Positions 10,978 through 38,490 of a DNA stretch of 64,000 nt are shown here, piece by piece. Under the pieces are notes generated by a model. That model saw nothing but the letters and a program-made list of their open reading frames with translations. It ran no database searches and was not told where the DNA came from. Both the position numbers and the translations under genes were made by a program. Location: NCBI GenBank assembly GCA_036570125.1, contig DATCPK010000161.1, positions 4,224 to 68,223 of the forward strand, written 5' to 3'. Each line of letters opens with the position of its first letter. Within the stretch, counting starts at the first letter, position 1. Source of the DNA: Candidatus Limnocylindria bacterium. Its GTDB lineage: Bacteria > Chloroflexota > Limnocylindria > P2-11E.

Positions 10978-12757
10978 TTTTGTCGCGGTGGCGTGGCCGT
11001 ACACGAACGGCCCGCGGCATCTCGGGCATGTCGCCGGCTTCGGCGTGCCGTCGGACGTCTTCGCTCGCTACCACCGCCTGGTGGGCAACGACGTGCTCAT
11101 GGTGAGCGGAACCGATGAGCACGGGACACCGAATCTGATCCAGGCCGACGCCGAGGGCCTGACCGCGAAGGAAGCCGTCGATAAGTACAGCCGCATCATC
11201 AGCGAGGATCTGCGGTCGCTCGGGTTGTCGTACGACCTCTTCACTCGGACGACCACGGACAACCATCGGGTCGTCGTCCAGGACGTCTTCAAGACGCTCT
11301 TCGACAAGGGCTACCTCATCAAGAAGACCGCGATGGGCGCGTTCCAGGAGGCCACGGGACGCACGCTTCCCGACCGCTACATCGAGGGCACGTGCCCGAT
11401 CTGCGGATATCCGAGCGCGCGCGGCGATCAGTGCGACAACTGCGGCAACCAGCTCGATCCCGACCAGCTCATCGATCCGCGCTCACGCATCGACGGGTCG
11501 AAGCCGATCTTCAAACAGACCGAGCACTTCTATCTCGACCTGCCGGCGTTCACCGAGCCGCTCACGAAGTGGATCTCCAAGCAGGACCACTGGCGACCGA
11601 ACGTGCGGAACTTCTCGCTCAACTACATCGCGGACCTCAAGCCGCGCGCGATCACTCGCGACATCGACTGGGGCGTGCCGATCCCGCTCCCCGGCTGGCA
11701 GGAGCGGCCCGACAAACGGATGTACGTGTGGTTCGACGCGGTGATCGGTTATTTCTCGGCCGCGGTCGAGTGGGCGGGCATGGTCGGACGGCCCGACGCC
11801 TGGCGCGACTGGTGGCAGGACCCGAAGTCGCGGCACTTTTATTTCATGGGCAAGGACAACATCGTCTTTCATACGACGATCTGGCCAGCGATCTTGCTCG
11901 GGTACGGGAACGGCGGCACCATCGCGGGCGGCAAGGGCGAGCCCCTTCAGCTTCCGTACAACGTCGTGTCGAGCGAGTTCCTGACGATGGAGGGCCGCAA
12001 GTTCTCGACGAGCCGCGGCGTGTCCATCTACGTGAACGATTTCCTCTCGCGTTACGACCCCGACGCGCTCCGGTTCTATCTGATGCTCGCCGGGCCCGAG
12101 ACGCAGGACACCGACTTCACGTGGGCCGACTTCGTCCGCCGCAACAACGACGAGCTCGTCGCGACATGGGGAAACCTCGCGCATCGAACGCTCGTCAACG
12201 CACATCGTCGGTTCGGCGAGGTGCCACGTCCTGGCGAGCTCACGGCCGCCGACAAGACGTTGATCGAGACGGTCGAGTCCGGATTCGAGAAGGTCGGCGA
12301 CCATCTCGAGGGCGCGCGTTTTCGCGCGGCGCTGCAGGAATTGCTTCACCTCTCGGCGCTCGTCAATCAGTACCTGACCGAGACGGAGCCGTGGAAGCTG
12401 ATCACGACAGATCGCGAGAGGGCGGGGACCGTCCTTTATGTAGCGCTCCGGAGCGTCGACGCGCTCAAGGTGATGTTCGCGCCCTTCCTGCCGTTCTCCA
12501 GCCAGAAGCTTCACGAGTACCTGGGCTACGACAGCCAGATCGCGGGCGCCCCAGAGCGCCGCACGGTCCGTGAATCCGACGGCTCCTCGCATGACGTGCT
12601 CACCGGTGACTACACGAAGTGGGCCGGCTCGTGGAAGCCGCCGACGCTGCCCGTCGGGCAGAAGCTCCGCACGCCGGAGCCCCTGTTCAAGAAGCTCGAC
12701 CCCGACGTCGTGATCGCCGAGGAGCTCCGGCGTATGGAGGAGCGCGGCGGGAAGTGA
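10964..12757 (+). CDS. metG: Methionyl-tRNA synthetase.
   Basis: HLGH (HIGH) motif, KFSTSRG (KMSKS) motif, zinc knuckle CPICGYP...CDNCG. Confidence 0.95.
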
Positions 12758-14193
12758 GACGCCTCTGGGCGTTCGCGGTCACCGCCTCACTAGCGCTCGG
12801 TGCTTGCTCCTCGGCCGGTCCAGCCGCGACCTCGCCGACCGCGTCCTCATCCGCGGTCCTCGTCGCGCCCGCGACCGCGTTCGACGCGGCGAAGGCGAAG
12901 GCGCACGTCGACTATCTCGCCGACCCGGCGCGAGGCGGGCGCTACTCCGGTTCCGCCGGGTACCGCGACGCGGCCACATACGTCGCCGACCGCTTCCGTG
13001 ACATAGGGCTCGAGCCCCTCGGCGACAACGGCACGTTCTTCCAGCACTTCACGATGCCCATCGTCGATCTGACCGAGATGTCGACGCTCACGGGTCCCGG
13101 CGGGAGGACCTACCGGCCGCGCGTCGACTTCACGGAAAGCGTCGGCGGTCGATCGGGCTCGGGCAAAGTGGAGGCCGAGATCGCGGCGGTCGGAGGCGCC
13201 GCGCGCGGCGGTGGATTGGATGACTTCGCCGGCGCGAACGTGCGCGGGAAGATCGCGCTCGTGACCGGGCCCTCGGCGCCGAACGGCGGCAGCTCCGTCG
13301 AAAACGCGTACCAGGAGGGTGCGATCGGCGTGCTCATCGTCGGCGGCGCGACGCTTCGGTACTCGTACATCCCGCGCCTGCAGAGCGAGACCGTCCCGAC
13401 GTTCGTGATCAGCCAGGAGGTCGCGGATCAGCTGCTCGGGCCGAGCGGAAGGACGGTGGCGACCGCGCAGGATCTCGTGCGCGCGCGCCGATCCAATACG
13501 AGCGCGCCCGCGTCGGGATTCGACGTGCCGACAACCGTGCGTATGACCGTGTCGCTCGGGCCGGTGCACGACGTCGACGCGATCAACGTCGTCGGGCTGT
13601 TGCGCTCACCCGATCCGAACAACGCGCAGCGCGCGGTCCTCGTCGGCGGGCACCTGGACGGCGTCGGCACCGACCCCGACGGCGCGATCTTCCAGGCCGC
13701 CAACGACAACGCGTCTGGGCCTGCAGTGACGATCGAGGTCGCGCGGGCGCTCGCCGGATCGCGCGCATCGCTCAGCCATTCCGTGGTCTTCGTCGCGTTC
13801 GCCGGCGAGGAAGAGGGCTACTACGGCTCGGAGGCATACATCGCGCAGATGGCGGTCGCCCCCGGCCGGGTCGAAAGCCTCGTGGCGGTGTTGAACCTCG
13901 ACGTGATCGGCTGCTGCAGCGACACGCTGCTCGTGTCGAACGAAGCGCCGGATCTGCAGCGCCGAGTTCGCGACGCCGCGACGAAGCTGGGCGTCGCAAG
14001 CGATGCGACCGGGTCCGGCGGGAGCGATCAGCAGAGCTTCGCGCGCCGCCGGGTTCCGGCCGTGTTCATCGGCGCCGCCGATTTCATCCTGCATGTGTAC
14101 GCGGACAAGCCTTCGGTGGTCCTTGAGAGCCGTCTCCAGAAGGCCGGCGACGTCGTCACCGCGGTCGCGAAGGACATCGCCAGCGCGCCTTAG
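12754..14193 (+). CDS. M28 family aminopeptidase with PA domain; lipoprotein.
   Basis: [26 protein letters not shown] zinc-binding region. GTG start overlaps the metG stop (GTGA). Signal peptide [17 protein letters not shown]. Confidence 0.8.
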
Positions 14194-15014
14194 GTCGCGG
14201 CGATCTCCGCAGCGCGTTCGCCGATCGTCTTCGCCACCTCGTCGCGCTCGCGCTGTCCGAATCCGTCAGACGAAAGCATCTCGACCGCGGCGAGGTCGCG
14301 GTACAGGACGCGCACCAGGCGCCTCGCCTCCGTCGGCGCGCGGCCGAGCCACTCGAGCGTCTTATCCACCTGGACCGTGTGCTGGATCATGTGCGCCTCG
14401 AACCGGTGCAGGCGGAAGCGGATCGGCTTGAGGCCGTCCCAGAACCCGGCGAGCTTCTCAAGATCCTCGTCGCGTAGATCGCCGAGCTCGCGAAGCACGC
14501 GGCGGTGGATCTCGAAGATCGCGTTGCGTACGTCCGAGATGCCGCCCGGAAGCGAGTCGGGCGCGGCGTATCCGTGCTCCTTGCGCCACGAGGGCCAGCG
14601 GTCGCCGGCCTCATCCTCATCCGCCGGCCGGCCCGGGTCGCGCGCGTATTGAACGGTGCCGAGAAAGCCGTACTCGGCGCCGAGCATGTGCGCGATCACC
14701 TCGCGTAGCGGCCACTCCCGCTCTTTCGGGACGCGGTCAAGGTCGTCGTCGTGGACGCCGGCCAGCGCGCCGGTCAGATCGCGATAGGCATGGTGGTACT
14801 GGCCGAGGATGCGTTGCGCCTGCGTTGGTGGCGCCGGTCGCATCGCGGCGAGCCGAACCGCGAGGTCGCGCACCTCGTGCTGCGCCATGAGAAGGGCGAA
14901 CCGCAGTCCTTCCTCGTCGTACTCCCGCCACACCCACGTCCGGTCCATTTCGGAGTCGGGCAGATCGACGGTCGTGCGGACCAGCGCCTCGACGGCCTGC
15001 GTGACGGTCAGCAT
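14190..15014 (-). CDS. DinB_2/MDMPI-like four-helix-bundle metalloprotein (the family that includes thiol S-transferases and maleylpyruvate isomerase).
   Basis: 274 aa with conserved His-rich helices (MAQHEVRD, VIAHMLGAEYGF, RFEAHMIQH). Start codon overlaps the stop of the GCS2 gene by 1 nt. Confidence 0.55.
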   Translation of the reverse strand: MLTVTQAVEALVRTTVDLPDSEMDRTWVWREYDEEGLRFALLMAQHEVRDLAVRLAAMRPAPPTQAQRILGQYHHAYRDLTGALAGVHDDDLDRVPKEREWPLREVIAHMLGAEYGFLGTVQYARDPGRPADEDEAGDRWPSWRKEHGYAAPDSLPGGISDVRNAIFEIHRRVLRELGDLRDEDLEKLAGFWDGLKPIRFRLHRFEAHMIQHTVQVDKTLEWLGRAPTEARRLVRVLYRDLAAVEMLSSDGFGQRERDEVAKTIGERAAEIAAT

Positions 15015-16138
15015 TACAGCGCGACGACCGGCACGCCGGCGATCGTCTCCGCGGCGACGCTGTCGACGACCGCATGGAGGTGGCCCGTTTCCTTCCACAC
15101 ACGGATCTGGCGGTCCGCGCTCGTCCCTTCGCGGACGATCGTCTCGAGGTACTCCACTTCTTTGCGCGAGCCTAGCGCGTCCACCACGTCGTCGATGAAC
15201 TCGAGCAGCTCGACGGCGAGCTCCCTCATGGGCACCTCGGTCTGCTTGCCGAAGTCGATCAGCTTGGCGTCCATACCGCCGCGCATGGCGCGCCACTTGT
15301 TCTCCTGGATGAGGCTCGGCAGGTAGCGGCGGAAGCCCAGGTTCTTCTCGCGAAGGACGAGAAGCTTCGCGGAGATGGCCTGGATGAGCGCCGCGATGCA
15401 CAGGGTCTCCTCGACGCGCGTGGCCGCATCGCACACGCGGAACTCGATCGTGGGGAAGAACGCGTGCGGCCGCAGGTCCCACCAGATCTTGCGTCCGTTG
15501 TCGATCGACTTCGTCTTCACGAGAAGCTCGACGAAGTTCTCGTACTCGTCGTAGCTCGAGAATTGCGGCGGGATCCCAGTGCGCGGGAAGCGGCCCCAGA
15601 TGACCTGGCGGTACGACTTCAAGCCGGTGTTGCGCGCGAGCCAGAACGGCGACGACGTCGAGATCGCGAGGAGATGCGGAAGGAAATACCGCGCCTCGTT
15701 CATCACCTCGACGCGGCCCTCGCGATCCGGAATGCCAACGTGCACGTGCAGTCCGAAGATCAGCAGCTCGCGGATGACGTCCTGCAGCTCGTCCTCGAGG
15801 ATCTTGTAGCGCTCCGCCTCGGTGACCTGCTGGTCCTGCCAGTGCGAGAACGGGTGCGTTCCGGCCGACGCGATGCGCAGGCCGGCCGGCGCGAGCAGCG
15901 CGGCGAGCGTCCCGCGAAGGGTCGTGATCTCGGCGCGCGCCTCGCTGATGTCGGCGCAGATCTTCGTGCCCGCCTCGATGACCGACTGCATCATCTCGGC
16001 CTTGATTTGATCGCCGAGTCGCGGAGCCGCGGCCGCGAGAAGCGTCTCGCTGTGGCTCTTCAGCTGCCCCTCGCCGTCGACGATCTGGAACTCTTCCTCG
16101 ATCCCGATGGTGAGACGCGGGACGTTCGTCTGTCTCAT
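15014..16138 (-). CDS. Carboxylate-amine ligase of the GCS2 family (YbdK-like gamma-glutamyl:cysteine ligase type).
   Basis: N-terminus LTIGIEEEFQIVD plus conserved GTHPFS and FWLARNTG blocks. 374 aa. Confidence 0.85.
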   Translation of the reverse strand: MRQTNVPRLTIGIEEEFQIVDGEGQLKSHSETLLAAAAPRLGDQIKAEMMQSVIEAGTKICADISEARAEITTLRGTLAALLAPAGLRIASAGTHPFSHWQDQQVTEAERYKILEDELQDVIRELLIFGLHVHVGIPDREGRVEVMNEARYFLPHLLAISTSSPFWLARNTGLKSYRQVIWGRFPRTGIPPQFSSYDEYENFVELLVKTKSIDNGRKIWWDLRPHAFFPTIEFRVCDAATRVEETLCIAALIQAISAKLLVLREKNLGFRRYLPSLIQENKWRAMRGGMDAKLIDFGKQTEVPMRELAVELLEFIDDVVDALGSRKEVEYLETIVREGTSADRQIRVWKETGHLHAVVDSVAAETIAGVPVVAL

Positions 16139-17463
16139 CGCCGGCCACCCGCGATGACGTAGGTTGGCACGACGCTGCCGGCGCCCGCGGTCACGTTGAG
16201 CAGGGCGCTCGACGACACGCGCGCGAGGCAGCCCGAGACCGTGCCCCAGAAGAGATACGGGTTGTGGTCGATCGAAAGATCGAGGAAATGGACGCCGCCG
16301 AGGACGACCGGGAACGGGTGGCGCGGCACGTCGACGCGCTCCTGCACCACATACGAGCTCGCGAGCGCCGCGAGAAAGGATTGCTCCCACTCGTGCTGAT
16401 CGATCGTCCAGCCGAGCACCACGCCCTTGCCGCCGTACTCGTCGTTGGGCTTCAACACCAGCCGGTCGCGGTGCGCGATGACGAAGTCGCCAAGGTCGAT
16501 GACCTTTCCGCCGTACGTCGTGTGGCCCTCGCGGATCTTCCGCGTCCACGGGATGTGCTTCGCGATCGCCGCGCGCTGGGGCGGCGTGTAGAGCGCGGCG
16601 TAGCGGTCGTCTGAAAGGAGCGCGAGGCTCATCTTCTTGTGGAGGAGCTTGGCGCGGAAGCTGTTCACGACGGTCACCGCGCCCTCGAGATACGCGCGAA
16701 CGAGAGGCCGCGAGACGTCGTCCTTCGCGAGGAGCTCGCTCGTCAGCACGCGCCGATATACGAGGTTGATCGGCTTTCCGCGCGCGCGAAGCGTGCCGCG
16801 CGAATAGGTCAGATCGTCCGGCGCGCAGATCACGGTCGGCACGCCGCGCGACTCGAAGTACCGCTGAAACATCTCGAACTCGGTGAGGGTCGGCAGACCG
16901 CGCCAGTCGACGATCGCGATCGAGGGCGAGCGCTCCGACCGCGACCGATGGGCGCGCAGCATCGCCGTGAGCTGGCGCCCGCGCGTCGGGACGACGCTGC
17001 ACGAAAACTTCTTGCGGAACAGCTTCATCACCGGCAGCGATGCGAAGACCTGCGCGAGCTCGTCGTTGTATGCCATGCCCGCCGGCGATTCCGCGTTGTA
17101 TTCGACGAACCGAATCACGCCGTCCTCTCCGATGAAGCCATCGAGGCGCGCCGAGGGAGATGCCGCGCGGAAGCCGGGATCGCGCACCGCGAGCGCCTCT
17201 TCCTGCGGGTCGAGGTCGAGCTCGCGTCGCAGGTCCTCGTCGGCGAGCAGCGCCCGCTCGAGCCGCCCGAGAGCCGCGTAGATCGTCTGCGACGCTTCGT
17301 TCACGGCCGCGTACTGCCAGTCGCTGACGAGATTGGGCCGCAGCGAGACGCAGAGGGGCCGATCGCCGAAGACGAGCCTGCGTTTCCGCTGGCCTTCGGT
17401 GAGCACGGACGCGCTCGCCTCAGCGAGCTCCGGATCCTCCAGGAGCTCGTGGTACGCGACCAC
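16135..17463 (-). CDS. Circularly permuted ATP-grasp amidoligase (type 2; glutathionylspermidine-synthase-like).
   Basis: VNSFRAKLLHKKMSLALLSD and VLKPNDEYGGKGVVLGW blocks resemble the GspS/CP-ATP-grasp family. GTG start chosen to avoid a 160-nt overlap with the upstream gene. Confidence 0.55.
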   Translation of the reverse strand: MVAYHELLEDPELAEASASVLTEGQRKRRLVFGDRPLCVSLRPNLVSDWQYAAVNEASQTIYAALGRLERALLADEDLRRELDLDPQEEALAVRDPGFRAASPSARLDGFIGEDGVIRFVEYNAESPAGMAYNDELAQVFASLPVMKLFRKKFSCSVVPTRGRQLTAMLRAHRSRSERSPSIAIVDWRGLPTLTEFEMFQRYFESRGVPTVICAPDDLTYSRGTLRARGKPINLVYRRVLTSELLAKDDVSRPLVRAYLEGAVTVVNSFRAKLLHKKMSLALLSDDRYAALYTPPQRAAIAKHIPWTRKIREGHTTYGGKVIDLGDFVIAHRDRLVLKPNDEYGGKGVVLGWTIDQHEWEQSFLAALASSYVVQERVDVPRHPFPVVLGGVHFLDLSIDHNPYLFWGTVSGCLARVSSSALLNVTAGAGSVVPTYVIAGGRR

Positions 17464-17498
17464 GGGGTCGCGCGCCGTCGAGGCCGGCCGCCGTCGCG

Positions 17499-18464
17499 CT
17501 AGCGCACGTGCCGCCACCACCGATGCTCCCCCTTCCACGGCGGCTCCGCCTGCCCCGTGGCGTATGCGATGACGAGATCGCTCATCTTCTCGAGGACCCA
17601 CGCGAAGTTGTCCTCTTTGATCGAGAAACTGTCGAAGTCCGGAGCGGGATTGAGCCAATCGATCGCGTAGAGCTCACCGTCGCGAATCGCGAACTCGACA
17701 GTGTCCATGTCATAGCCGAGCGCGTCGGTGAGGCGGATCGCGTTGAGGATGGCGCGGGTGCGCAGATCACCCTCGACCGGACGGCTGATGACGTACCGCT
17801 CGTGGAATGGCGCGGTCGGGTCGTATCGGATCGGAAGAACATCCTTGCGGCCGATCGCGATGCAGCGGATGTAGTCCTCCCACTTGATGAACTCCTGAAG
17901 GATCATCGTCTTCGGCCGGTACCCCGGCGAGAGCCCGCCAGACTGGTCGTAGGCCCAGATGAGCTCCTCTTTCGTGTCGACGCGATAGACGTCCTTCCAT
18001 CCGCCGCCGGTGTTCGGCTTGAGGATGGCGGGCAGTCCCGTGTACGCGATGAGCGAGTCCCAATCGAGCGGGTACTGCAGGTTGCGCAGCGACTGGTCGG
18101 AGATGTCCGGGATGTACGCCTTGTTCGGCAGGGCCACGGTCTTCGGCACCGATACGCCGAGCATGCGCGCGAGCGTGCACTCGAAGAACTTCTCGTCGGC
18201 TTCCCACCAGAACGGGTCGTTCACGACCACCGTCCCCTGGAGGACCGCGCTTTTCAGGTGAGCCCGGTAATACGGGACCTCGTGGCTGATCCGATCGACG
18301 ATCACCGCGTACCGCTGAAGCTCGATCTCGCGCGCGCCGCCCAGGACGGCCATCTCGGCGCGCACGCCCTTGGCGGCGCCCTTGCGATTGACCGTTTCGA
18401 TGAACGGGCCGGGGAACGTGTTCTCGCGGCCGATGAGAAGGCCGACAACTTTTTCGTCGCTCAT
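17499..18464 (-). CDS. Classical ATP-grasp domain ligase (RimK/GshB-like fold).
   Basis: ILKPNTGGGWKDVYRV phosphate loop, MILQEFI hinge, EFAIRDGELYAIDWLNPAPD. Start at MSDEKVVGLL. Confidence 0.6.
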   Translation of the reverse strand: MSDEKVVGLLIGRENTFPGPFIETVNRKGAAKGVRAEMAVLGGAREIELQRYAVIVDRISHEVPYYRAHLKSAVLQGTVVVNDPFWWEADEKFFECTLARMLGVSVPKTVALPNKAYIPDISDQSLRNLQYPLDWDSLIAYTGLPAILKPNTGGGWKDVYRVDTKEELIWAYDQSGGLSPGYRPKTMILQEFIKWEDYIRCIAIGRKDVLPIRYDPTAPFHERYVISRPVEGDLRTRAILNAIRLTDALGYDMDTVEFAIRDGELYAIDWLNPAPDFDSFSIKEDNFAWVLEKMSDLVIAYATGQAEPPWKGEHRWWRHVR

Positions 18465-19168
18465 ATGTACCTGTCCACCATGTCCTTCCAGTACGGCCAA
18501 TCGTGCGCCCAGCCGTCCCAGATATCGAGTTCGGCCGGCACGCCCTTCTCCTGCAGCACGGCCGCGAGGCGCTTCGATTCGTCGACGTTCGCATCGTCGC
18601 GGCCGGTTGCGATGATGATCTCCGTCGCCCGGAGGGGCGCGAGATAGCGATCGTCGTTCAGATTCGCGAGGAACGCGAGTGGATTCACGAAGTACGCCTC
18701 TCCACTCCGATCGCCGTCCAGCCAACGTGCGGTGTCGTACGCGCCGGACATGCCGACGGCCTTTCGCGCGATGCCCGGGCGCCGTGTCACGAACGAGAGC
18801 GCGTGAAACGCGCCGAACGAGGCTCCGGCAACGATGAGCTGATCGACCGCGTTCGTGAAGCGGATCGCGGGCAGGACCTCGTCGACGAGATATCGCTCGT
18901 ACGCGAGATGCCGGCGCGCGCGGTCCTGCGGCGCCGCCGTTTTGTTGTAGAAGGACTCGCCATCGATCGAGTCGACACACCAGAGCTGGACCCAACCGGC
19001 TTCGATCCGCGGCGCCATGTGCGCCACGATGCCGAAGTCCTCCCATTGGTAGAACCGGCCCATCGAGGTCGGAAACACGAGCACGGGCGCGCCGCGGTCG
19101 CCGAAGACGAGCAGCTCCATGTCACGTCCGAGCGCGGGGCTCCACCATTTCCGGTACTCGCGGTTCAC
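18461..19168 (-). CDS. Putative esterase (esterase D / alpha-beta hydrolase family).
   Basis: VAGASFGAFHAL nucleophile elbow region. ATGA overlap with the ATP-grasp gene; GTG start (GTGA) overlaps the ppa stop. Confidence 0.55.
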   Translation of the reverse strand: MNREYRKWWSPALGRDMELLVFGDRGAPVLVFPTSMGRFYQWEDFGIVAHMAPRIEAGWVQLWCVDSIDGESFYNKTAAPQDRARRHLAYERYLVDEVLPAIRFTNAVDQLIVAGASFGAFHALSFVTRRPGIARKAVGMSGAYDTARWLDGDRSGEAYFVNPLAFLANLNDDRYLAPLRATEIIIATGRDDANVDESKRLAAVLQEKGVPAELDIWDGWAHDWPYWKDMVDRYI

Positions 19169-19677
19169 GACGTCCTCCGTGCGCGGCCGCGTGCGTCGCC
19201 GATCAGCTTCCACGCCACATCGGCATCGTGCCAGCCTTTCACTTCGGACGACTTGTTGCTCTCGAGCTCCTTGTAGGTGGCGAAGAACGTCTCGATCTCG
19301 CGCAGCCAGTGCTTCCCCAGATCGCCGAGGGCCTGGACCTCGTCGAACCGCGGATCGCCGACGGGTACGGCGAGGATTTTCTCGTCGTCGCCGTGCTCGT
19401 CGCGCATAAGGAGCGTGCCGATCGGCCGAGAGGGCACCACGCAACCTGGGAACGTCGGCTCCTCGACCACGATGAGGGCATCGAGCGGATCGCCGTCTCC
19501 GCCGATCGTGTCCATGACGAAGCCGTAGTCGGCGGGGTAGTGCACCGAAGAGAAGAGGACGCGGTCGAGGCGGATTCGGCCGGTCTTCTGGTCCATCTCG
19601 TATTTGGCGCGCGAGCCTTTTGGGATCTCTACGAGGACGTCAACGCTCTGATCCTGGCTCCCGCTCCTCACGCACAT
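19165..19677 (-). CDS. ppa: Inorganic pyrophosphatase.
   Basis: Family I PPase blocks: PADYGFV, DGDPLDALIV, DEKILAV. Confidence 0.9.
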   Translation of the reverse strand: MCVRSGSQDQSVDVLVEIPKGSRAKYEMDQKTGRIRLDRVLFSSVHYPADYGFVMDTIGGDGDPLDALIVVEEPTFPGCVVPSRPIGTLLMRDEHGDDEKILAVPVGDPRFDEVQALGDLGKHWLREIETFFATYKELESNKSSEVKGWHDADVAWKLIGDARGRARRTS

Positions 19678-20362
19678 GCTCCCCCGCGTCTTTGGCCGGC
19701 GCCACGACCACCGTGATCTCGCCTTTTGGGCGGTCGGAAGCATAGTGCGCCGCCAGTTCCGACGCCGACCCGCGGACGATCTCCTCGTGCAGCTTCGTCA
19801 TCTCGCGGGCCACCGCGACTAGCGCATCAGGTGCGACCGCGGCGAGGTCTGCCAGCAGGTCGCCGACGCGAAACGGGCTCTCGTACAGAACGACCGTGCG
19901 GCCCGCCGCGAGGAGCTCGGTGAGCTCGCGCCGCCGTGCGCCGCTCTTCTTCTCAAGAAAACCGACGAACGTGAACTCGCGTGTTGGCAACCCCGACGCC
20001 ACGAGCGCCGCGATCGCCGCGGCCGGGCCCGGGATCGGCACCACCTCGTGACCTGCCGCGATCGCGGCGACGACGAGCTGCTCGCCGGGATCGGACAGAC
20101 CGGGCGTGCCGGCATCGGTCACGAGCGCCACATCCCATCCGCGGTCCATCTGACCCACCAGCTCGGCAACCTTGCGACGGTGATTGAATTCTGTATAGCT
20201 CGTCAGATGCTTCGCGCGGATCTCATGCTTGCGCAGAAGGATCTGCGTATGTCGCGTGTCCTCGCACGCGACCATGTGGACCTCCTGCAGGATCCGCAGC
20301 GCGCGCAGCGAGACGTCCTCGAGATTGCCGATCGGCGTCGCTACGAGATAGAGCTTGCCTAT
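19640..20362 (-). CDS. rsmI: 16S rRNA (cytidine1402-2'-O)-methyltransferase RsmI.
   Basis: Conserved N-terminus GKLYLVATPIGNLEDVSLRALRILQEVHMVACEDTRHT is encoded in frame upstream of the ATG given in the ORF track. No ATG/GTG/TTG precedes it; a non-canonical ATA at 20362..20360 overlaps the NIPSNAP stop (ATAG). Confidence 0.75.
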   Translation of the reverse strand: MGKLYLVATPIGNLEDVSLRALRILQEVHMVACEDTRHTQILLRKHEIRAKHLTSYTEFNHRRKVAELVGQMDRGWDVALVTDAGTPGLSDPGEQLVVAAIAAGHEVVPIPGPAAAIAALVASGLPTREFTFVGFLEKKSGARRRELTELLAAGRTVVLYESPFRVGDLLADLAAVAPDALVAVAREMTKLHEEIVRGSASELAAHYASDRPKGEITVVVAPAKDAGEHVREEREPGSER

Positions 20363-20694
20363 GCGATGGGGACCTTCGGCGCGTAGGGGGCGGCGACGAG
20401 CACGCGATCTTCGATCTCGCCGACCAGGTCACCGTGCTCGGCGTTGGTCACGCGCTTGATCTCTTTCCACTCCTCGTCGGCCCTGAACTGGCGCCAGGCT
20501 GTTTCCATCGTCGCCACATCCGGCCAGCTCAGCAGGTAGACGAACTCCAAGCGCCGGGCGGTCTTGGATTCCCACATGGCGACGAACTCGAAGCCGTACG
20601 TCCGCATGATGCGCATCGCCTGGTCGCGGAAACGAGCGTGGAAAGCGGCCTTGTTACGTTCGAAGATCTCGTACACGCGGAGCTGATGGATCAA
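20359..20694 (-). CDS. NIPSNAP-family (dimeric alpha/beta barrel) protein.
   Basis: 111 aa. MIHQLRVYEIF...FVAMWES pattern typical of NIPSNAP. Confidence 0.5.
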   Translation of the reverse strand: MIHQLRVYEIFERNKAAFHARFRDQAMRIMRTYGFEFVAMWESKTARRLEFVYLLSWPDVATMETAWRQFRADEEWKEIKRVTNAEHGDLVGEIEDRVLVAAPYAPKVPIA

Positions 20695-20744: not shown

Positions 20745-21425
20745 GTGAGCTCGCAACGGCGGATCCTCGTGGTCGACGACGACGATCGTCTCGCAGCGTC
20801 GCTCCGCCGAGCGCTTATCTATGAGGGCCATACCGTCGACATCGCCGGCGATGGTCCGGGCGCGCTGGTCGCCGCGCGCGATCGCCCGCCGGACCTGGTC
20901 GTGCTCGACGTCATGCTGCCGGGGATGGACGGCGTAGAAGTCTGCCGACGATTACGGGATGGATCGGACCTCCCGATCCTGATGCTGACCGCGCGCGACG
21001 CCGTCTCCGATCGCGTCGCCGGGCTTGACGCTGGAGCGGACGACTACCTCGTGAAGCCATTCGCGTACGACGAGCTCCTGGCGCGCGTGCGCGCGCTCCT
21101 GCGGCGGCGGGAGCCAGGCGGCCGCGGGATCCTGCAGTGCGCGGACCTCGTCATGGACGTATCGCGACACGAGGTCCGGCGCGGGGATCGCGCGATCGAG
21201 CTGACCGCGCTCCAATTCGATGTCCTCGAGCATTTCCTCAGGCATCAGGATCAGGTGCTCGATCGCGATCGGCTGCTCGTCGCCGTGTGGGGGATCGACA
21301 GCGACGCCGTCTCGAACGTCGTCGACGTTACCGTTGCCGGGCTCCGCGCTCGGATCGAGTCCGACGACCGTCCGCGACTGCTGCACACGGTGCGCGGCGT
21401 CGGCTACGTCCTGCGGGAGCGATAG
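20745..21425 (+). CDS. OmpR-family response regulator (receiver plus winged-helix).
   Basis: ILVVDDD, DLVVLDVMLPGMDG, C-terminal VRGVGYVL. Confidence 0.9.
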   Translation: MSSQRRILVVDDDDRLAASLRRALIYEGHTVDIAGDGPGALVAARDRPPDLVVLDVMLPGMDGVEVCRRLRDGSDLPILMLTARDAVSDRVAGLDAGADDYLVKPFAYDELLARVRALLRRREPGGRGILQCADLVMDVSRHEVRRGDRAIELTALQFDVLEHFLRHQDQVLDRDRLLVAVWGIDSDAVSNVVDVTVAGLRARIESDDRPRLLHTVRGVGYVLRER

Positions 21426-22844
21426 ATGCCACTCCGACGACAGCTCGCACTCTACGGGACCAGCGTCGCGGCAGCCGGAATGTTGGTGTTCATCCTCCTG
21501 CTGTCCGGCCTCGGGGCGAACGGCGTCCGCGAAGATCAGGACCGCAACCTGACCGCGATGGCCGATGCGGCCGCGACCGCGCTGCAGCGCGGCGACGCCA
21601 CACCGAACGCGGCGCGGTCGCTTCTGGTGACCGATCTGGCCATCAGCACCGATCCGTTCATCCTCCTGCTGACGCCCGACGGATCGGTTCGGTACACGTC
21701 GGGGCTGCTCGGTGGCGTGCCGCCGCGTATTCCGGCCGCCGTGATCGTCGAGGCGAACGAGCGGGGTCGCTCGGTAGCGACCATCTCGGCCGCCGGCGCG
21801 GCCGGCGGTGGCGCGGATGCCGGTCTGCGCGTGGTGGCGCGCAAATGGACGAGCGCGTCGGACAGCGGGATCGTCGTCGCGGGCCAATCGACCGCGTTTC
21901 CGGCAAATCAGATCACCGGGCTACGGACATTTCTGGTGATCGCCGCGATCGTGACGCTCATCGTCGTCGCGATCGTGTCATGGCTCGTCGCGGGACGCGC
22001 CGTCCGGCCGCTCGTGACTCTCGCGCAGACGACCGAAGCGATCGGCGCGACCGGAGATCTCTCGCGGCGTCTCGCGCTCAGCAAGAACCGCGACGAGGTC
22101 GGCCGGCTCACGACGAGCTTCAACGCGATGATCGAGCGGCTGCAGTCGTCGCAGGCCGACCTTGGCGCGGCGCTCGCCGCTCAGCAGCGATTCGTCGCTG
22201 ACGCATCGCATGAGCTCCGGACGCCGCTCTCGACCATTCGCACGAACGCGGAGTTCCTGCGCGAGCGACCCGATGCGACGGTGGACGATCGAAGCGCCGC
22301 GATCGGCGACATCGTGAGCGAAGCGGAGCGCATGAGTAAGCTCGTCGAGGGCCTTCTCGTCCTCGCGCGCGCCGACGCCGGCATCGCCATCGAACGTCGA
22401 CCCGTGGACCTTCGAGCGGTCGCGGCAGAGGAGGCGCGGCGCGTTCGGCCACCCGGGCGTGTCCGCGACGAGACAGAGACGGTTCGCGTCACGGCGGATG
22501 GATCGGCCCTCGTCTCGGGCGATGCCGAGGCCCTGGGTCGGGTCGTCAGATCCCTCCTCGACAACGCGTTTCGGCACGGCAAGCCGCCGGTCGCGATCAC
22601 CATCGGCCGACGCGATGGTCGTATCCAGCTCGAGGTCAGCGACGCCGGGACCGGGCTGCCCCAGGGCAGCGAGGAGCGGATCTTCGAGCGCTTCTATCGC
22701 GCCGATCCCGCGCGAAGCGGAGAGGGCACGGGCCTCGGGCTGTCGATCGCTCAGGCGATCGTCAAATCGCACGGCGGCACGATCCGAGCTGCAAACATTG
22801 ATGGCGGCGGCACGACAGTGACGATTGAGCTTCCGGCGCTCTAA
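21426..22844 (+). CDS. Sensor histidine kinase (2 TM, HAMP, HisKA, HATPase_c).
   Basis: H-box ASHELRTPLSTI. N and G boxes (DNAFRHG, GTGLGLSIA). Confidence 0.9.
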   Translation: MPLRRQLALYGTSVAAAGMLVFILLLSGLGANGVREDQDRNLTAMADAAATALQRGDATPNAARSLLVTDLAISTDPFILLLTPDGSVRYTSGLLGGVPPRIPAAVIVEANERGRSVATISAAGAAGGGADAGLRVVARKWTSASDSGIVVAGQSTAFPANQITGLRTFLVIAAIVTLIVVAIVSWLVAGRAVRPLVTLAQTTEAIGATGDLSRRLALSKNRDEVGRLTTSFNAMIERLQSSQADLGAALAAQQRFVADASHELRTPLSTIRTNAEFLRERPDATVDDRSAAIGDIVSEAERMSKLVEGLLVLARADAGIAIERRPVDLRAVAAEEARRVRPPGRVRDETETVRVTADGSALVSGDAEALGRVVRSLLDNAFRHGKPPVAITIGRRDGRIQLEVSDAGTGLPQGSEERIFERFYRADPARSGEGTGLGLSIAQAIVKSHGGTIRAANIDGGGTTVTIELPAL

Positions 22845-33811: not shown

Positions 33812-34153
33812 TCAGCCGATCTCGAGCTCTTTGGTCGGGACGCCGACATCCACCTGCACGACGCCGTCGACGATGCGCACCGGATACGCGTTCACCGGAA
33901 AGACGGCGGGCAACGCACGCACCTCACCGGTCAAGAGGTCGAATCGCGCCCCGTGGCGCGGGCACTCGACCAAGCAGTCCTCGAGCTCGCCCTCGCCGAG
34001 GACACCGCCGTCGTGGGTGCAGACGTTGTCGATCGCGCCCCACGTGCCATCCTCGCAGTGCCCGAGCGCAAGACTCTTGTCCCGTGCGTGGACGACCTTC
34101 ACCTCGCCGACCGGGACCTCGTCCTCGCGAGCGACCGGCACGAACTCGGTCAA
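33812..34153 (-). CDS. Rieske [2Fe-2S] domain ferredoxin; last gene of the suf operon.
   Basis: CTHDGG and CPRHG ligand boxes. ATGA overlap with sufD. Confidence 0.75.
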   Translation of the reverse strand: MTEFVPVAREDEVPVGEVKVVHARDKSLALGHCEDGTWGAIDNVCTHDGGVLGEGELEDCLVECPRHGARFDLLTGEVRALPAVFPVNAYPVRIVDGVVQVDVGVPTKELEIG

Positions 34154-35424
34154 ACGAGGACGCCCATCTCCGCGATGTTGCCGATGCGAGGACGGAGGGC
34201 GTTCAGCACACGCTGGCGAACATGCTCGTCGTCGAGTCGATTGATCACGCGGCGGAAGAATCCGTGGACCATGAGCTGCTGCGCCTGGTCGCGGTCGAAG
34301 CCGCGCGACATCGCGTAGAAGAGCTCCTCGTCCCCGAGCGCCCCTGCGGTGGCACCGTGGCCGCAGCGGACGACGTCATTCGTGAGGATCTCGAGCACCG
34401 GGATCGGGTCCGCACCCGCGTGCTTCGACAGGAGCATGTTGCGGCATTCCTGATAGCTGCCGGTCCCGCTCGAGGTCGCCTCCACCCGGATCTTGCCGTA
34501 GAAGATGGCCTTGGCGTGGTCGTAGAGAGCAGAGAGGTAGAGGAGGTCACTCTGCGAGCCCTTGCCGTCCACTTGCTGAAAGCTGTTCACGTCGATGCGC
34601 TGGTTGTCGCCGGCCGCGACGAGCCCGTAGAGCTTCACGGTCGCACCGTTGCCTTCCATGTCCGACTGGATGCCGACCTTCGACCTGCCCTCACCCGCGA
34701 ACACGTTGTGGACGGCGAGGTCGCTGTCGTTCGCGGAACGGAACCGCTGAAAGCCGAGGTCGAGCACGCCCGGTGCGAAACGACGGATCGCGACGTAGCG
34801 CACCCGCGCGCCCGGGCCGGCGTACACGTCGACGTGCGGGATCGCGATACGGGGCGTCGCGCCTTCGGACGAGAGGTCCTCGACGATCGTCACGGTCGAC
34901 CCGCGCTCCGCGACCACGATCGTTCGCGAGAGCATCGCGTCGCCACCGGCAGGCCAGACCTTGTCGACGACGATCGGCATCTCGACGGCAACGTCCGCGG
35001 GAACGTGAACGAACGTGCTTCCGGCCGACCAGAGCGCGTCAGCGATCGCGCGGAATGCGGCATGGGACGGGATCCCGTCCCCCGGGGCGATGTGCGGACG
35101 GACGAGATCGGGATTGTCGAGCGAGGCGCGCAATAGACCCTTGAAGATCACGCCCTGTGCCGCTGCTTGGGGCTCGAGCTTGAACTGGATACCTGGAAGG
35201 CGGTCGACCGACGAGACGAGCGAACCTTCGGGGAGGTCCGTCAACGGGAACCGCCGCCACTCCTCTTCCTGACCGGTCGGCCAGCTCTCCGGCGTGAATC
35301 CTTCAAGTGCGCTCAGGCGCGCGGCGCGCAGCCACTCGGGCTCGTTGCGCCGAAGACTGTGCTGCTCGACCGTTTCGCGGTCGAGCAGCAGCGGGACCGG
35401 TGTGAGTGTTGGCGCGCTAGCCAA
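34150..35424 (-). CDS. sufD: Fe-S cluster assembly protein SufD.
   Basis: SufBD-family beta-helix C-terminal region. 8-nt overlap with sufB. Confidence 0.9.
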
Positions 35425-36823
35425 GGGCGCCTTGCATCTGCAGCGTGATCAGCCGGTTCATCTCGATCGCGTAGTCCATCGGGAGCGTCTTGACGATCGG
35501 CTCGATGAAACCGTTCACGACCATCGCGGTACCCTCGGCCTCGGAGAGTCCACGGCTCATCAGGTAGAAGAGCTGCTCCTCGCCGACCTTCGAAACAGAT
35601 GCCTCGTGGCCGATGGTGACGTCCTCCTCGTCGATCTCCATGTACGGGTACGTGTCACTTCGCGCGGTCTGGTCGAGGATGAGCGCATCGCACCGGACGG
35701 TGCTCTTGGCGCCATGCGCACCGGGATAGATCTTTACCAGACCGCGGTAGGTCTGCTGCCCGGTTCCTTTGCTGATGCCCTTGCTCTGGATGATGCTCGT
35801 CGTGTTCGGCGCGGCGTGGATCATCTTGGCGCCGGCGTCCTGGTGCTGGTCGTTCCCCGCGAATGCCACCGAGAGCACTTCGCCGTGGGCGCGCTCGCCG
35901 ACGAGGTACACGCTCGGGTATTTCATCGTGACCTTTGAACCGAGGTTCGCGTCGATCCAGGTCATCCGGGCGTCCTCGTGAACGACCGCGCGCTTGGTCA
36001 CGAGGTTGTAGACGTTGTGACTCCAGTTCTGGATCGTCGTGTATCGCACGTCGGCGCCCTTCTTGACGATGATCTCGACGACCGCGCTGTGCAACGTGTT
36101 CGTCGTGAACACCGGCGCGGTGCATCCCTCGACGTAGTGAACGCTCGAGCCTTCCTCGGCGATGATGAGCGTCCGCTCGAACTGGCCGGCGTTCTCGCTG
36201 TTGATGCGGAAGTACGCCTGCAGCGGGATCTCCACCTTGACTCCAGGCGGGACCCACACGAACGAGCCGCCCGACCACACCGCGGTGTTGAGCGCGGCGA
36301 GCTTGTTGTCGTTCGCGGGAATGACCGTGCCGAAGTACTGCTTGACGATGTCGGGGTGCTCCTTCAGCGCGGTGTCCGTGTCCATGAAGATGACGCCGAG
36401 CTTCTCGAGGTCCTTGCGGATGTTGTGATAGACGGACTCGCTGTCGTACTGCGCGCCGACGCCGGCGAGGTACTTCTGCTCTGCCTGCGGGATGCCCAGC
36501 TGATCGAACGTGCGCTTCACGTAGTCGGGCACGTCCTCCCAGCTCTTTGCGGACTTATCGGAGGCGCGCAGGTAGTAATAGATGTCCTCGAAGTCGATGC
36601 CCGAAAGGTCCGCGCCCCACGTCGGCATCGAGCGCGTGCGGTAGTGCTTGAGCGCCTTGAGGCGCCGCTGGAGCATCCAGTCCGGCTCCTGCTTGTAGGT
36701 CTGGCTGATCTCGCGGACGACGTCCTCCGAGAGGCCCTTGTGCTTCTTGTTCCGGTAGACGGCGTCCTTGTCTTCCCAGCCGTACTGGTAGTCCTTGGGA
36801 AGGTCCGCAACTTGGGTTGTCAT
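35417..36823 (-). CDS. sufB: Fe-S cluster assembly protein SufB.
   Basis: Highly conserved SufB blocks ([11 protein letters not shown]...). ATGA overlap with sufU. Confidence 0.95.
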
Positions 36824-37218
36824 TTCGCTTTCACCTCTTCGCCGGGCCACGCCGTGAGTCCCCAGGCCGCGCCTTTCAACGCTTTCAACCCAAGGAGCGC
36901 GCACTTGATGCGCGCCGGACTGATCGGAATGCCGAGATTCGCGAGCACGTGATCGCGGTCGATCGCCTTCACCTCCCCAAGCGTCTTGCCTTTCACCTCT
37001 TCGGTGAGGATTGAGGCCGATGCCTGGCTGATCGCGCAGCCCTTGCCGGTGAAGTGCACGTCGTCGACGTTGCCGCCATCGATCTTGAGCTGCATCGTCA
37101 TCTCGTCGCCGCAGAGCGGGTTCGAGTCGTGGTACGTGTGAGTCGCGCCCTCGAGCTCGCCGAAGTTCCGCGGGTTCTTGTAGTGGTCGAGGATGTAGTC
37201 CCGGTACATGTCATCCAT
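36820..37218 (-). CDS. sufU: SufU-type (IscU/NifU-like) sulfur transfer protein.
   Basis: NPLCGD, GKGCAIS and ARIKCALLG motifs. ATGA overlap with sufS. Confidence 0.85.
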
Positions 37219-37220
37219 GG

Positions 37221-38486
37221 CTAAATCCCGAACACTTTCTTCGCGGTGTGGATGGCACTCACCAGAGCATCCATCTCGTCCGTCGTGTTGTACAGATACA
37301 CGCTGGCGCGCGTCGTCGCTGGAACACCGAGCCGATTCATGAGCGGCTGGTTGCAATGGTGCCCGGCGCGCACGCACACGCCCTCGCTGTCGAAGATCGT
37401 CGCGACGTCGTGCGGGTGGATGCCTTCGATGTTGAACGACACGACGCCGACGCGAGACTCCAGATCCTTCGGCCCGTAGATCGTCACGCCAGGGATCTCA
37501 CGAAGGCGCGGCAACAGGTACTCGACGAGCGAGAGCTCGTGCGCATGGACCTTCGCGATGCCGACGTCGTTCAGGTAGTCGACCGCCGCTCCGAGTGCGA
37601 TCGCGTCGACGTACGAGCTCGTCCCGGCCTCGAACTTCCACGGGAGCTCGTTCCACTCGGTGAGCTTCACGGTGACACGGCTGATCATGTCGCCGCCGTA
37701 CAGGAACGGACGCATCTTCTCGAGGGTCTCCGCGCGGCCCCAGAGCGCACCAGACCCGGGAGGCGCGAGCATCTTGTGGCCACTGAAGGCCACGAAGTCG
37801 GCGCCCAGGTCCTGCACGTCGACCGGCGTGTGCGGCACAGCCTGCGCGACGTCCACGAGAACGGTCGCGCCGGCGGCGTGGGCCTCCGCCGCGATCTCCT
37901 TGACCGGGTTCACGGTGCCAAGGCCGTTCGAGGTGTGCGTGATCGCGAGGAGCTTGGCGCCCTTGCGCAGCTCGGCGGACATCTGATCGCGCCGGAGACG
38001 GCCGTCGTCATCGACGTCGACCACGGCGATCTCCGCGCCGACCTCCGTCGCGAGCTGCTGCCAAGGGACGAAGTCGGAGTGATGCTCGAGCACCGTCGTC
38101 ACGATCCGGTCGCCGCGCTTGATGTTGTCTCTGCCCCAGGCGTACGCGACGAGGTTCAAGCCTTCGGTCGCGTTGCGCACGAAGATGACCTCGCGCTCGC
38201 TCGGCGCGTTGATGAAGCGCGCGACTTTGGCACGGGCTTCCTCGAACGCGGCGGTGGTGCGCTCGCTGAACTCGTACACACCGCGATGGATGTTCGCGTT
38301 GTGCTCCTCGAAGACGCGCGTCATCGAGTCGATGACCTGGCGAGGCTTCTGGCTGGTCGCGGCGTTGTCGAGGTAGACGAGCTTCTTCCCCCGCACCGTC
38401 TGCGCGAGGATCGGGAAGTCCTTGCGGATGCGCCCGACGTCGAGCGGCGCCGCCTTGATAACCGGGGTCTTGACCGTCACAGCCAC
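37221..38486 (-). CDS. sufS: Cysteine desulfurase, SufS class.
   Basis: PLP-Lys region SGHKM and RAGHHCNQP active-site Cys loop. GTG start 5 nt after the sufC stop. Confidence 0.9.
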   Translation of the reverse strand: MAVTVKTPVIKAAPLDVGRIRKDFPILAQTVRGKKLVYLDNAATSQKPRQVIDSMTRVFEEHNANIHRGVYEFSERTTAAFEEARAKVARFINAPSEREVIFVRNATEGLNLVAYAWGRDNIKRGDRIVTTVLEHHSDFVPWQQLATEVGAEIAVVDVDDDGRLRRDQMSAELRKGAKLLAITHTSNGLGTVNPVKEIAAEAHAAGATVLVDVAQAVPHTPVDVQDLGADFVAFSGHKMLAPPGSGALWGRAETLEKMRPFLYGGDMISRVTVKLTEWNELPWKFEAGTSSYVDAIALGAAVDYLNDVGIAKVHAHELSLVEYLLPRLREIPGVTIYGPKDLESRVGVVSFNIEGIHPHDVATIFDSEGVCVRAGHHCNQPLMNRLGVPATTRASVYLYNTTDEMDALVSAIHTAKKVFGI

Positions 38487-38490
38487 TGCT

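Follow-up and report, generated by a model that had tools for sequence, protein, structure and literature searches.

Among the described systems that resemble the genes analysed here is a neighbourhood of a circularly permuted (CP) ATP-grasp protein of type 2, a GCS2 ligase and an alpha/beta-hydrolase, which Iyer, Abhiman, Burroughs and Aravind are said to have predicted, in Mol Biosyst in 2009, to make small peptides. In the Pfam text on PF14403 the partners of the CP_ATPgrasp_2 family are GCS2, a peptidase of alpha/beta-hydrolase type, an M20 peptidase and a GAT-like amidohydrolase; the prototype of the neighbourhood is RoseRS_2616 of Roseiflexus. In glutathione biosynthesis a Glu-Cys ligase is combined with a glutathione synthetase (GS), which in eukaryotes is a permuted ATP-grasp enzyme (PDB 2hgs, 1m0w, 3kal); comparable enzymes are the glutathionylspermidine synthetases (GspS), the trypanothione synthetases (TryS) and the E. 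coli paralogues YgiC and YjfC (PDB 2io7, 2vpm, 7uka, 7uk6). The compound E-64 is assembled stepwise and independently of non-ribosomal peptide synthetases (NRPS) by a fungal GS-like ATP-grasp enzyme, Cp1B, and an amide-bond synthetase (PMC12568646; PDB 9cjn). Here we describe a cassette of amidoligase genes on the minus strand of a 64,000-nucleotide (nt) stretch of DNA, referred to below as the window, from a Candidatus Limnocylindria bacterium (contig DATCPK010000161.1, positions 4,224 to 68,223 of the forward strand). The cassette encodes, in the order of its transcription, an esterase, a classical ATP-grasp ligase, a permuted ATP-grasp protein, a GCS2 ligase and a DinB_2 protein (Table 1), the first four of which form a core that is conserved across phyla and that would probably direct the synthesis of a small gamma-glutamyl product.

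The five open reading frames (ORFs) all translate free of stops, and their junctions are tight. The esterase start overlaps the end of the inorganic pyrophosphatase gene (ppa) in a GTGA, with the Shine-Dalgarno-like motif GGAGGA 6 nt upstream; this motif and the conservation of esterase residues 1-16 across phyla argue for the GTG start at 19168. ATGA overlaps join the esterase to the classical ATP-grasp gene and the permuted ATP-grasp gene to GCS2, a TAATG couples GCS2 to DinB_2, and 35 nt separate the two ATP-grasp genes, a gap that becomes an overlap if the permuted gene starts at GTG 17538, the alternative picked by another gene caller (its homologues are 444-478 amino acids (aa) long). 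No terminator-like site was found on the minus strand between the five genes, the single match to the terminator consensus on that strand (19096-19082) being within the esterase ORF. By their strand, their overlaps or short gaps and the absence of an internal terminator, the five genes are predicted to form a single operon. A search of the gaps for a small ORF or precursor peptide found none, the permuted ATP-grasp/GCS2 gap aligned from five distant loci displayed no conservation, and no metabolite-naming riboswitch turned up when the window and five loci were scanned with Rfam. Nor was a conserved carrier or tag protein found beside the cassette in any lineage looked at. The cassette is a real, co-oriented and translationally coupled amidoligase gene set.

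A scan of 185,579 species-representative genomes yielded at least 231 that encode a relative of the permuted ATP-grasp protein. The best 80 loci, nearly all of which stem from uncultured lineages of soil and permafrost, were compared by tblastn with all window proteins, and adjacency was counted where the flank sufficed. The classical ATP-grasp gene lies directly upstream of the permuted one at 73 of 76 testable loci, the esterase gene is upstream of the classical ATP-grasp gene at 67 of 71, and GCS2 follows the permuted ATP-grasp gene directly at 65 of 66. This order is kept in Limnocylindria, Actinomycetota and Dormibacterota, while the flanking genes differ between phyla. Further relatives were taken from a full HMMER scan (563 clusters at 50% identity, E below 1e-30), and among those of about 45% identity that were looked up the same four-gene order is present at L091, L092, L093, L094, L095/L096 and L098. 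The catalytic signatures of all four core proteins are kept across 60 to 77 homologues, and the classical ATP-grasp protein and GCS2 retain 67-80% identity between phyla. An order that recurs in dozens of genomes of several phyla is far beyond chance, and because it is kept while the flanks change, the functional unit is the four-gene core. A preliminary description of the window had placed five genes in the unit, with start/stop overlaps or a short gap and without a precursor-peptide ORF in the gaps, and had let the unit continue into ppa-rsmI-NIPSNAP. The junctions and the empty gaps are as it described, the gaps also lacking a conserved intergenic element, and the conservation of gene order on which it staked its proposal is strong across loci. 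The five genes do adjoin, but DinB_2 is lineage-restricted and the core has four; likewise the next three genes lie on the same strand and ppa overlaps the esterase, but they represent housekeeping synteny and no part of the module.

The CP_ATPgrasp_2 neighbourhood predicted earlier is recovered here, with GCS2 and the hydrolase at the frequencies just given. Common to both are the PF14403 family, a GCS2-like ligase, an alpha/beta-hydrolase and Chloroflexota among the hosts; the GAT-type amidohydrolase is matched by Peptidase_C26 genes at L092, L094 and L098, and the metallopeptidase neighbour by the M28 gene of Limnocylindria. The cassette may differ in its near-universal classical ATP-grasp gene (73/76) and its DinB-fold accessories, and its amidohydrolase is of the class-I GATase/C26 type. 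This type of neighbourhood is reported to have been predicted already by comparative genomics, and the novelty is hence lower than the preliminary description implied. Full-text searches of the searchable literature found no experimental work on the CP_ATPgrasp_2 family, a search for a low-molecular-weight thiol of Chloroflexi linked to DinB found nothing on the cassette, and one on YbdK function gave the 2008 pupylation paper (PMC2588565) alone. The sole literature match, PP_2688 of P. putida, was set aside as part of a different system with a proteasome-beta-like neighbour.

GCS2 matches PF04107 with 214.6 bits (cutoff 21) over profile positions 2-290 of 291 and the NCBIfam carboxylate-amine ligase model NF010039 with 511.3 bits (cutoff 371), and its PDB matches are the E. 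coli YbdK entries 1r8g and 1tt4 at E about 1e-45. The Mg/ATP signature of carboxylate-amine ligases, GhExE (PMC2588565), reads G12-I-E14-E15-E16 in the window protein, with G12, E14, E15 and E16 invariant in 61 homologues. Ligases of the GCS2 superfamily usually phosphorylate the gamma-carboxylate of glutamate, and the Pup ligase PafA arose from the same fold (PMC2588565); for YbdK a weak gamma-Glu-Cys ligase activity has been reported (Lehmann 2004, cited in PMC2588565). Against the Glu-Cys ligase equivalogs NF010041-45, TIGR02048 and TIGR03444 the window protein stays under every cutoff, the best being NF010043 with 356 bits versus 409; TIGR02048 gives 61.5 versus 249 and the EgtA model TIGR03444 gives 21.5 versus 371.

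The 442 aa permuted ATP-grasp protein matches CP_ATPgrasp_2 (PF14403) with 41.2 bits (cutoff 32) over profile positions 78-373 of 374, and the same family is matched by 28 of 28 aligned homologues. Invariant among the homologues are R-x-D, E-x-N-x-x-S, K-P-x-x-E-x-G-G, Q-E and a C-terminal Arg. The top Foldseek matches of its predicted model are the human, yeast and plant glutathione and homoglutathione synthetases (E 5e-10 to 1e-7; template modelling score 0.52-0.57 over about 430 aligned columns); next come the fungal E-64 ligase Cp1B and, at E about 1e-3, GspS, YjfC and YgiC. Over its full length the predicted model has a fold common with eukaryotic-type glutathione synthetase. In the alignment with human GS, whose query sequence was confirmed to be identical to 2hgs, the K-P-x-x-E-G-G and S-Y-x-x-x-E segments line up, an agreement of local motifs only. 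Searches of PDB sequences with the single sequence and with a profile returned no matches, and the protein does not belong to Pfam GSP_synth (PF03738), to which 2 of 28 homologues show a match (E 0.04). It belongs to the permuted ATP-grasp clan but falls outside both the GS and the GspS family. Its structural neighbours with known substrates are all small-molecule carboxylate-amine ligases, and most of them (GS, homoglutathione synthetase, GspS, TryS) act on gamma-Glu-Cys or glutathione.

The cassette departs from each of these pathways. Compared with glutathione biosynthesis, its first ligase is a YbdK-type GCS2 below the GshA/EgtA cutoffs, significant sequence similarity to GS is absent, and a third ligase and a hydrolase are added. 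Compared with GspS, TryS, YgiC and YjfC, the permuted protein is not GSP_synth and has no CHAP amidase domain; the synthetase/amidase pairing of GspS is comparable to the ligase/hydrolase pairing of the cassette, where however the hydrolase is a separate enzyme of alpha/beta fold. The E-64 pathway is fungal, employs other partner enzymes and a warhead oxygenase, and lacks a GCS2 ligase. The permuted ATP-grasp domain is also found inside the very large multidomain proteins P0331 (3684 aa) and P0360 (990 aa), one of which has five matched stretches; these proteins could be fused multi-ligase assembly lines.

The 321 aa product of the second core gene matches no Pfam family, no Pfam ATP-grasp model reaching E 0.01 or better, and it is a member neither of the RimK family (TIGR00768, 27.5 bits, cutoff 143.4) nor of LysX (TIGR02144, 17.9 bits, cutoff 275.6). 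A PDB profile search hit pyruvate carboxylase and Ddl in their ATP-grasp domains (E 5e-5 to 6e-4). With the AlphaFold2 model (predicted local distance difference test, pLDDT, 82) Foldseek recovered Ddl, ArgX/LysX, RimK and PsnB at probability 1.0, E about 1e-10 to 1e-11 and about 15% identity. Among its homologues 149 of the 321 residues are invariant, including K149, Q190-E191, E257, D269 and N272, and K149, E191, E257, D269 and N272 would be the residues that bind ATP and Mg. Judging from the profile search and the predicted fold, the protein is to be assigned to the ATP-grasp superfamily. It shares fold and ATP-binding residues with RimK, LysX/ArgX and Ddl, but at about 15% identity and below the RimK and LysX cutoffs.

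The esterase scores 32.4 bits against the 'putative esterase' family PF00756 (cutoff 22) and has the fold class of alpha/beta serine hydrolases. Its catalytic triad, formed by the GxSxG motif G115-A-S117-F-G119 with D192 and H222, is invariant in 67 homologues and in a 15-sequence alignment. In the PDB profile search the matches at E 7e-9 to 5e-7 were ferulic-acid esterases and proteins labelled 'esterase family'. S-formylglutathione hydrolase also belongs to PF00756, and an assignment as S-formylglutathione hydrolase/esterase D was considered and dropped, since those entries reach just E 2e-3 to 2e-2, behind the ferulic-acid esterases. From its profile matches the protein is best regarded as a generic PF00756 enzyme that is nearer to ferulic-acid esterases than to S-formylglutathione hydrolase.

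DinB_2 scores 50.2 bits against PF12867 (cutoff 24.8), and its His triad H109, H208 and H212 is invariant in 26 homologues. Characterised enzymes of the DinB superfamily are mostly thiol-dependent, as are the mycothiol S-transferase (MST), the bacillithiol enzyme BstA/YfiT, the EgtB N-domain and MDMPI. The window protein has the DinB_2 membership and the invariant His triad in common with the DinB thiol S-transferases (MST, BstA/YfiT, EgtB N-domain), but it carries a 70 aa N-terminal extension and stays under the cutoff of the MST family PF04978 (22.3 bits versus 27); it has sequence similarity to none of the solved DinB structures. The 274 aa gene follows GCS2 at 26 of 33 Limnocylindria-type loci and at none of the 25 others (tblastn). 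At L010 and L014 another DinB_2 gene, of about 195 aa, sits exactly between the permuted ATP-grasp gene and GCS2, with a decayed copy at L016, and at L095 and L096 a DinB/MST-type gene of 173 aa lies two genes after GCS2; neither has detectable similarity to the 274 aa DinB_2. By our own count of gene tables, the DinB-fold genes among about 145 Pfam-annotated non-core genes of 12 distinct loci are exclusively adjacent to the cassette, one or two genes after GCS2. The repeated recruitment of the DinB fold suggests a functional link with the cassette but does not prove one, given how many DinB paralogues these phyla have. The permuted ATP-grasp/GCS2 junction receives other genes as well. In nine Limnocylindria-type loci it holds an insert that encodes a protein of about 170 aa, predicted to have two membrane helices and matching no Pfam family. 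At L016 the decayed DinB_2 is accompanied by a gene of metallo-beta-lactamase fold. This junction looks like a preferred site of insertion inside the operon.

Most of the earlier family labels survived the profile searches with each protein: CP_ATPgrasp_2, GCS2, DinB_2 and the PF00756 esterase all hold. For the classical ATP-grasp protein a Pfam match is absent and the label stands on PDB profile and fold; a misassigned RimK-type enzyme, which would have spoken against the earlier proposal, is contradicted by the TIGR00768 score. The YbdK-type label of GCS2 is retained through NF010039, whereas the GshA/EgtA type is lost with the curated cutoffs, and the permuted protein is not GSP_synth, its predicted fold being marginally closer to eukaryotic-type GS than to the GspS/TryS/YgiC group, which comes close behind. 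DinB_2 keeps its family, but is lineage-restricted and stays under the MST cutoff.

Beyond the core, variable hydrolase genes accompany the cassette in several lineages. A Peptidase_C26/GATase gene follows GCS2 at L092, L094 and L098; at L092 and L094 its product is most like the gamma-glutamyl-gamma-aminobutyrate (GABA) hydrolase PuuD (E 1e-32 to 1e-34, under the curated cutoff), while the L098 copy was assigned by Pfam domains alone. At L091 and L095/L096 a beta-propeller and S9 peptidase gene stands in this place. Hydrolases of the C26 and S9 types act on small gamma-glutamyl or oligopeptide substrates, and their presence supports a small gamma-glutamyl product that is actively turned over. 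Just downstream of the cassettes of L092, L094 and L098 there is a second, convergent PF00756 esterase of 280-300 aa, which together with the C26 gene suggests that an extended form of the cassette recurs. The downstream multi-pass membrane proteins of L090 and L097 match no family and are 55% identical to each other; these two loci also share flanking BNR-repeat and multihaem cytochrome genes. Two candidate cysteine genes were discarded: the pyridoxal phosphate (PLP) enzyme of L093, considered as a cysteine synthase, is of the threonine/serine-dehydratase type, and a cysteine-desulfurase-like gene was seen in L094 only.

By analogy with the characterised relatives of its enzymes, we propose that the cassette serves the stepwise ATP-dependent synthesis of a small gamma-glutamyl peptide or amide, with hydrolytic turnover, a model that we consider reasonably probable. 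In the model, GCS2 would turn a carboxylate into an acyl phosphate, the most probable one being the gamma-carboxylate of glutamate, and would join it to an amine or amino acid. The permuted ATP-grasp enzyme would then add a further amine or amino acid to the free carboxylate of that product, as GS does with gamma-Glu-Cys. A third amide bond would be made by the classical ATP-grasp enzyme, which could either provide a pre-formed dipeptide block, in a Ddl-like manner, or attach an extra residue. What results would be a small peptide or amide of non-ribosomal origin, held together by as many as three amide bonds made with ATP, of which one or more would be gamma-glutamyl. Trimming, editing or turnover of this product may fall to the co-translated hydrolase, a task that the PuuD-like or S9 enzymes could perform similarly elsewhere, and DinB-fold proteins of some lineages may take it as a cosubstrate, which would fit a thiol.

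A thiol as the product was the main idea of the preliminary description. In a version of this reading that seems to us rather unlikely, the cassette would make a new glutathione-like low-molecular-weight thiol: GCS2 would form gamma-Glu-Cys, the permuted ATP-grasp enzyme would add the third residue, the classical one would add or prepare a fourth, the DinB proteins would be S-transferases and the hydrolase a thioesterase or amidase for the conjugates. The GCS2 family does include gamma-Glu-Cys ligases, and YbdK is weakly active as one, but the window protein fails all curated Glu-Cys ligase models and passes the generic carboxylate-amine ligase model only. In its favour are the best fold matches of the permuted enzyme, the glutathione and homoglutathione synthetases, in a clan whose members mostly act on glutathione. 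Three mutually unrelated DinB-fold genes have been recruited in different lineages, those among the annotated non-core genes of the 12 loci all lie one or two genes after GCS2, and their superfamily is mostly thiol-dependent; nevertheless, DinB_2 is absent from 25 of 25 non-Limnocylindria loci and under the MST cutoff in the window, and the numerous DinB paralogues of these phyla let some adjacency be expected by chance. Similarly, PF00756 includes S-formylglutathione hydrolase, yet the profile of the hydrolase is nearer to ferulic-acid esterases, and genes for cysteine supply or disulfide reduction are not consistently linked to the cassette, the PLP enzyme of L093 being of the dehydratase type. 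The thiol identity comes down to family analogy and the recurrent DinB-fold neighbours. Likewise unlikely is a cysteine-containing tri- or tetrapeptide thiol, not yet described, that would buffer the redox state or serve detoxification as a cofactor in Limnocylindria, Dormibacterota and some Actinomycetota, the DinB-fold proteins being its S-transferases.

The model of a small gamma-glutamyl product has itself several points against it. The order and number of its ligation steps are purely conjectural. Confidence in the structural model of the permuted ATP-grasp protein is moderate (pLDDT 69, falling below 50 over the last 50 residues), and the comparison with human GS by sequence is not significant (hhalign probability 1.7%, pairwise z about 3). 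L090 and L097 have only the permuted ATP-grasp gene and GCS2, plus the conserved membrane protein, and at L089 the esterase and ATP-grasp genes lie 4 kb away from the permuted ATP-grasp gene, so the four enzymes need not be an obligate set. Finally, because the nearest folds of the classical ATP-grasp protein include RimK, LysX/ArgX and PsnB, part of the pathway could act on a macromolecule encoded elsewhere. A rival reading is a protein or peptide modification system. In it one or more of the ligases, in the manner of RimK, LysX/ArgX, tubulin-tyrosine-ligase or the Pup ligase, would attach amino acids to a protein or carrier whose gene lies elsewhere, at its C-terminus or on a side chain, and the hydrolase would remove them. 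The resemblance of a ligase and hydrolase pair to tag/de-tag systems, the origin of PafA from the GCS2 fold (PMC2588565), the ArgX/LysX, RimK and ribosomally synthesized and post-translationally modified peptide (RiPP) macrocyclase PsnB folds near the classical enzyme, and an inter-phylum identity of 67-80% that would fit a conserved macromolecular substrate, all agree with such a system. It is nonetheless quite improbable in our view: no conserved small carrier, tag or precursor ORF was found in or beside the cassette in any lineage, the RimK-family score is far under its cutoff, and the accessory genes encode hydrolases of small substrates (PuuD-like C26, S9 oligopeptidase type). Hardly credible is the notion that the five genes are neighbours by descent in one class with unrelated functions. 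The adjacencies of DinB_2, M28, ppa and rsmI are indeed confined to Limnocylindria-type loci, but across phyla the core genes stay closely spaced and in the same order and orientation although all flanks change, and their start and stop codons overlap; mere synteny is effectively refuted for the four-gene core and is a possible explanation for DinB_2.

The flanks of the cassette in the window are housekeeping in character. Flank content was taken from precomputed gene tables where possible, since a crude caller based on third-position GC content (GC3) sometimes chose antisense frames. The genes ppa, rsmI and NIPSNAP accompany the cassette only in Limnocylindria-type loci and are absent in Actinomycetota, Dormibacterota and the distant loci; metG and tatD, downstream beyond the M28 gene, are housekeeping synteny as well and are equally absent there. 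In most Limnocylindria-type loci the M28 gene comes after the cassette; no other lineage has it there, and a functional tie between the two is speculative. The longest ORF of the M28 gene in the window shares about 139 nt (12619-12757) with the 3' end of metG; other callers give a later start and 479 aa, and the true start is probably near 12754. Divergent from the cassette strand lies a two-gene pair of an OmpR-type response regulator and a HAMP/HisKA histidine kinase, conserved in identical contigs. About 15-25 kb from the cassette there is an iron-sulfur (SUF) cluster with SufB/SufD-type proteins, a class-V aminotransferase and an ABC ATPase, the last two likely being cysteine desulfurase SufS and SufC of an ordinary housekeeping system. 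A survey of the rest of the window for thiol-pathway genes found just housekeeping genes (NAD synthase, the SUF system, ABC transporters).

Proteins identical to those of the cassette are present on permafrost and soil metagenome contigs, and the nearest named homologues are those of 'Candidatus Limnocylindria', a class of Chloroflexota. Five loci (L007, L018, L031, L051 and L021) are 69-95% identical to the window and have the same rsmI/ppa/metG synteny, but are filed as metagenome-assembled genomes of Candidatus Udaeobacter, Bathyarchaeia, Saccharimonadales, Acidiferrales and Gaiellaceae; the most likely cause is that Limnocylindria contigs contaminated these bins.

Table 1. Coordinates of the cassette genes, of their neighbours in the window and of accessory genes at related loci.
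Feature	Locus	Coordinates	Strand	Size and basis
Esterase (core gene 1)	window	18461..19168	-	235 aa; PF00756
Classical non-permuted ATP-grasp ligase, no named family (core gene 2)	window	17499..18464	-	321 aa; profile and predicted fold
Circularly permuted ATP-grasp, GS-like predicted fold (core gene 3)	window	16135..17463	-	442 aa; CP_ATPgrasp_2
YbdK-type GCS2 carboxylate-amine ligase, glutamine-synthetase fold (core gene 4)	window	15014..16138	-	374 aa
DinB_2 metal-binding four-helix-bundle protein, lineage-specific accessory	window	14190..15014	-	274 aa; PF12867
PA-domain M28 aminopeptidase, convergent, its end meeting that of DinB_2	window	12619..14193	+	Peptidase_M28 E 1e-28, PA domain, faint M20 match
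Inorganic pyrophosphatase (ppa)	window	19165-19671	-	Pfam
rsmI-type methyltransferase	window	about 19640-20428	-	Pfam
NIPSNAP protein	window	20359-20694	-	Pfam
OmpR-type response regulator and HAMP/HisKA histidine kinase	window	20745-22844	+	
SUF iron-sulfur cluster	window	34150-39282	-	
Membrane-protein insert	L007	3688-4239		about 170 aa
Membrane-protein insert	L011	9317-9888		about 170 aa
Membrane-protein insert	L022	9326-9903		about 170 aa
Membrane-protein insert	L056	9305-9826		about 170 aa
Membrane-protein insert	L063	8168-8704		about 170 aa
Membrane-protein insert	L019, L020, L045, L054			about 170 aa
Second PF00756 esterase, convergent	L092	12944-13834		280-300 aa
Second PF00756 esterase, convergent	L094	10563-11405		280-300 aa
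Second PF00756 esterase, convergent	L098	9696-10598		280-300 aa
Downstream multi-pass membrane protein	L090	9777-10505		
Downstream multi-pass membrane protein	L097	8539-9399		

What is new here with respect to the predicted neighbourhood is the four-gene core with its near-universal second ATP-grasp gene, the quantified GS-like fold of the permuted protein, the repeated recruitment of DinB-fold genes, and the PuuD-like and S9 hydrolases as variable partners. Three ATP-dependent amide ligases and a hydrolase in one operon point to a small peptide metabolite that has so far escaped notice. If it were a thiol, it would join the short list of glutathione, mycothiol, bacillithiol and ergothioneine and give the DinB-fold enzymes of these phyla their substrates, and the permuted ATP-grasp protein would correspond in function, as a bacterial enzyme, to eukaryotic-type GS, to which it might also be related by evolution. 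If it were not, the cassette would represent a compact NRPS-independent peptide pathway of four genes and would provide the first defined physiological reaction for the YbdK and CP_ATPgrasp_2 families. In either case the natural variants of the cassette, with or without DinB, the C26 gamma-glutamyl hydrolase or the S9 peptidase, can guide the identification of the product.

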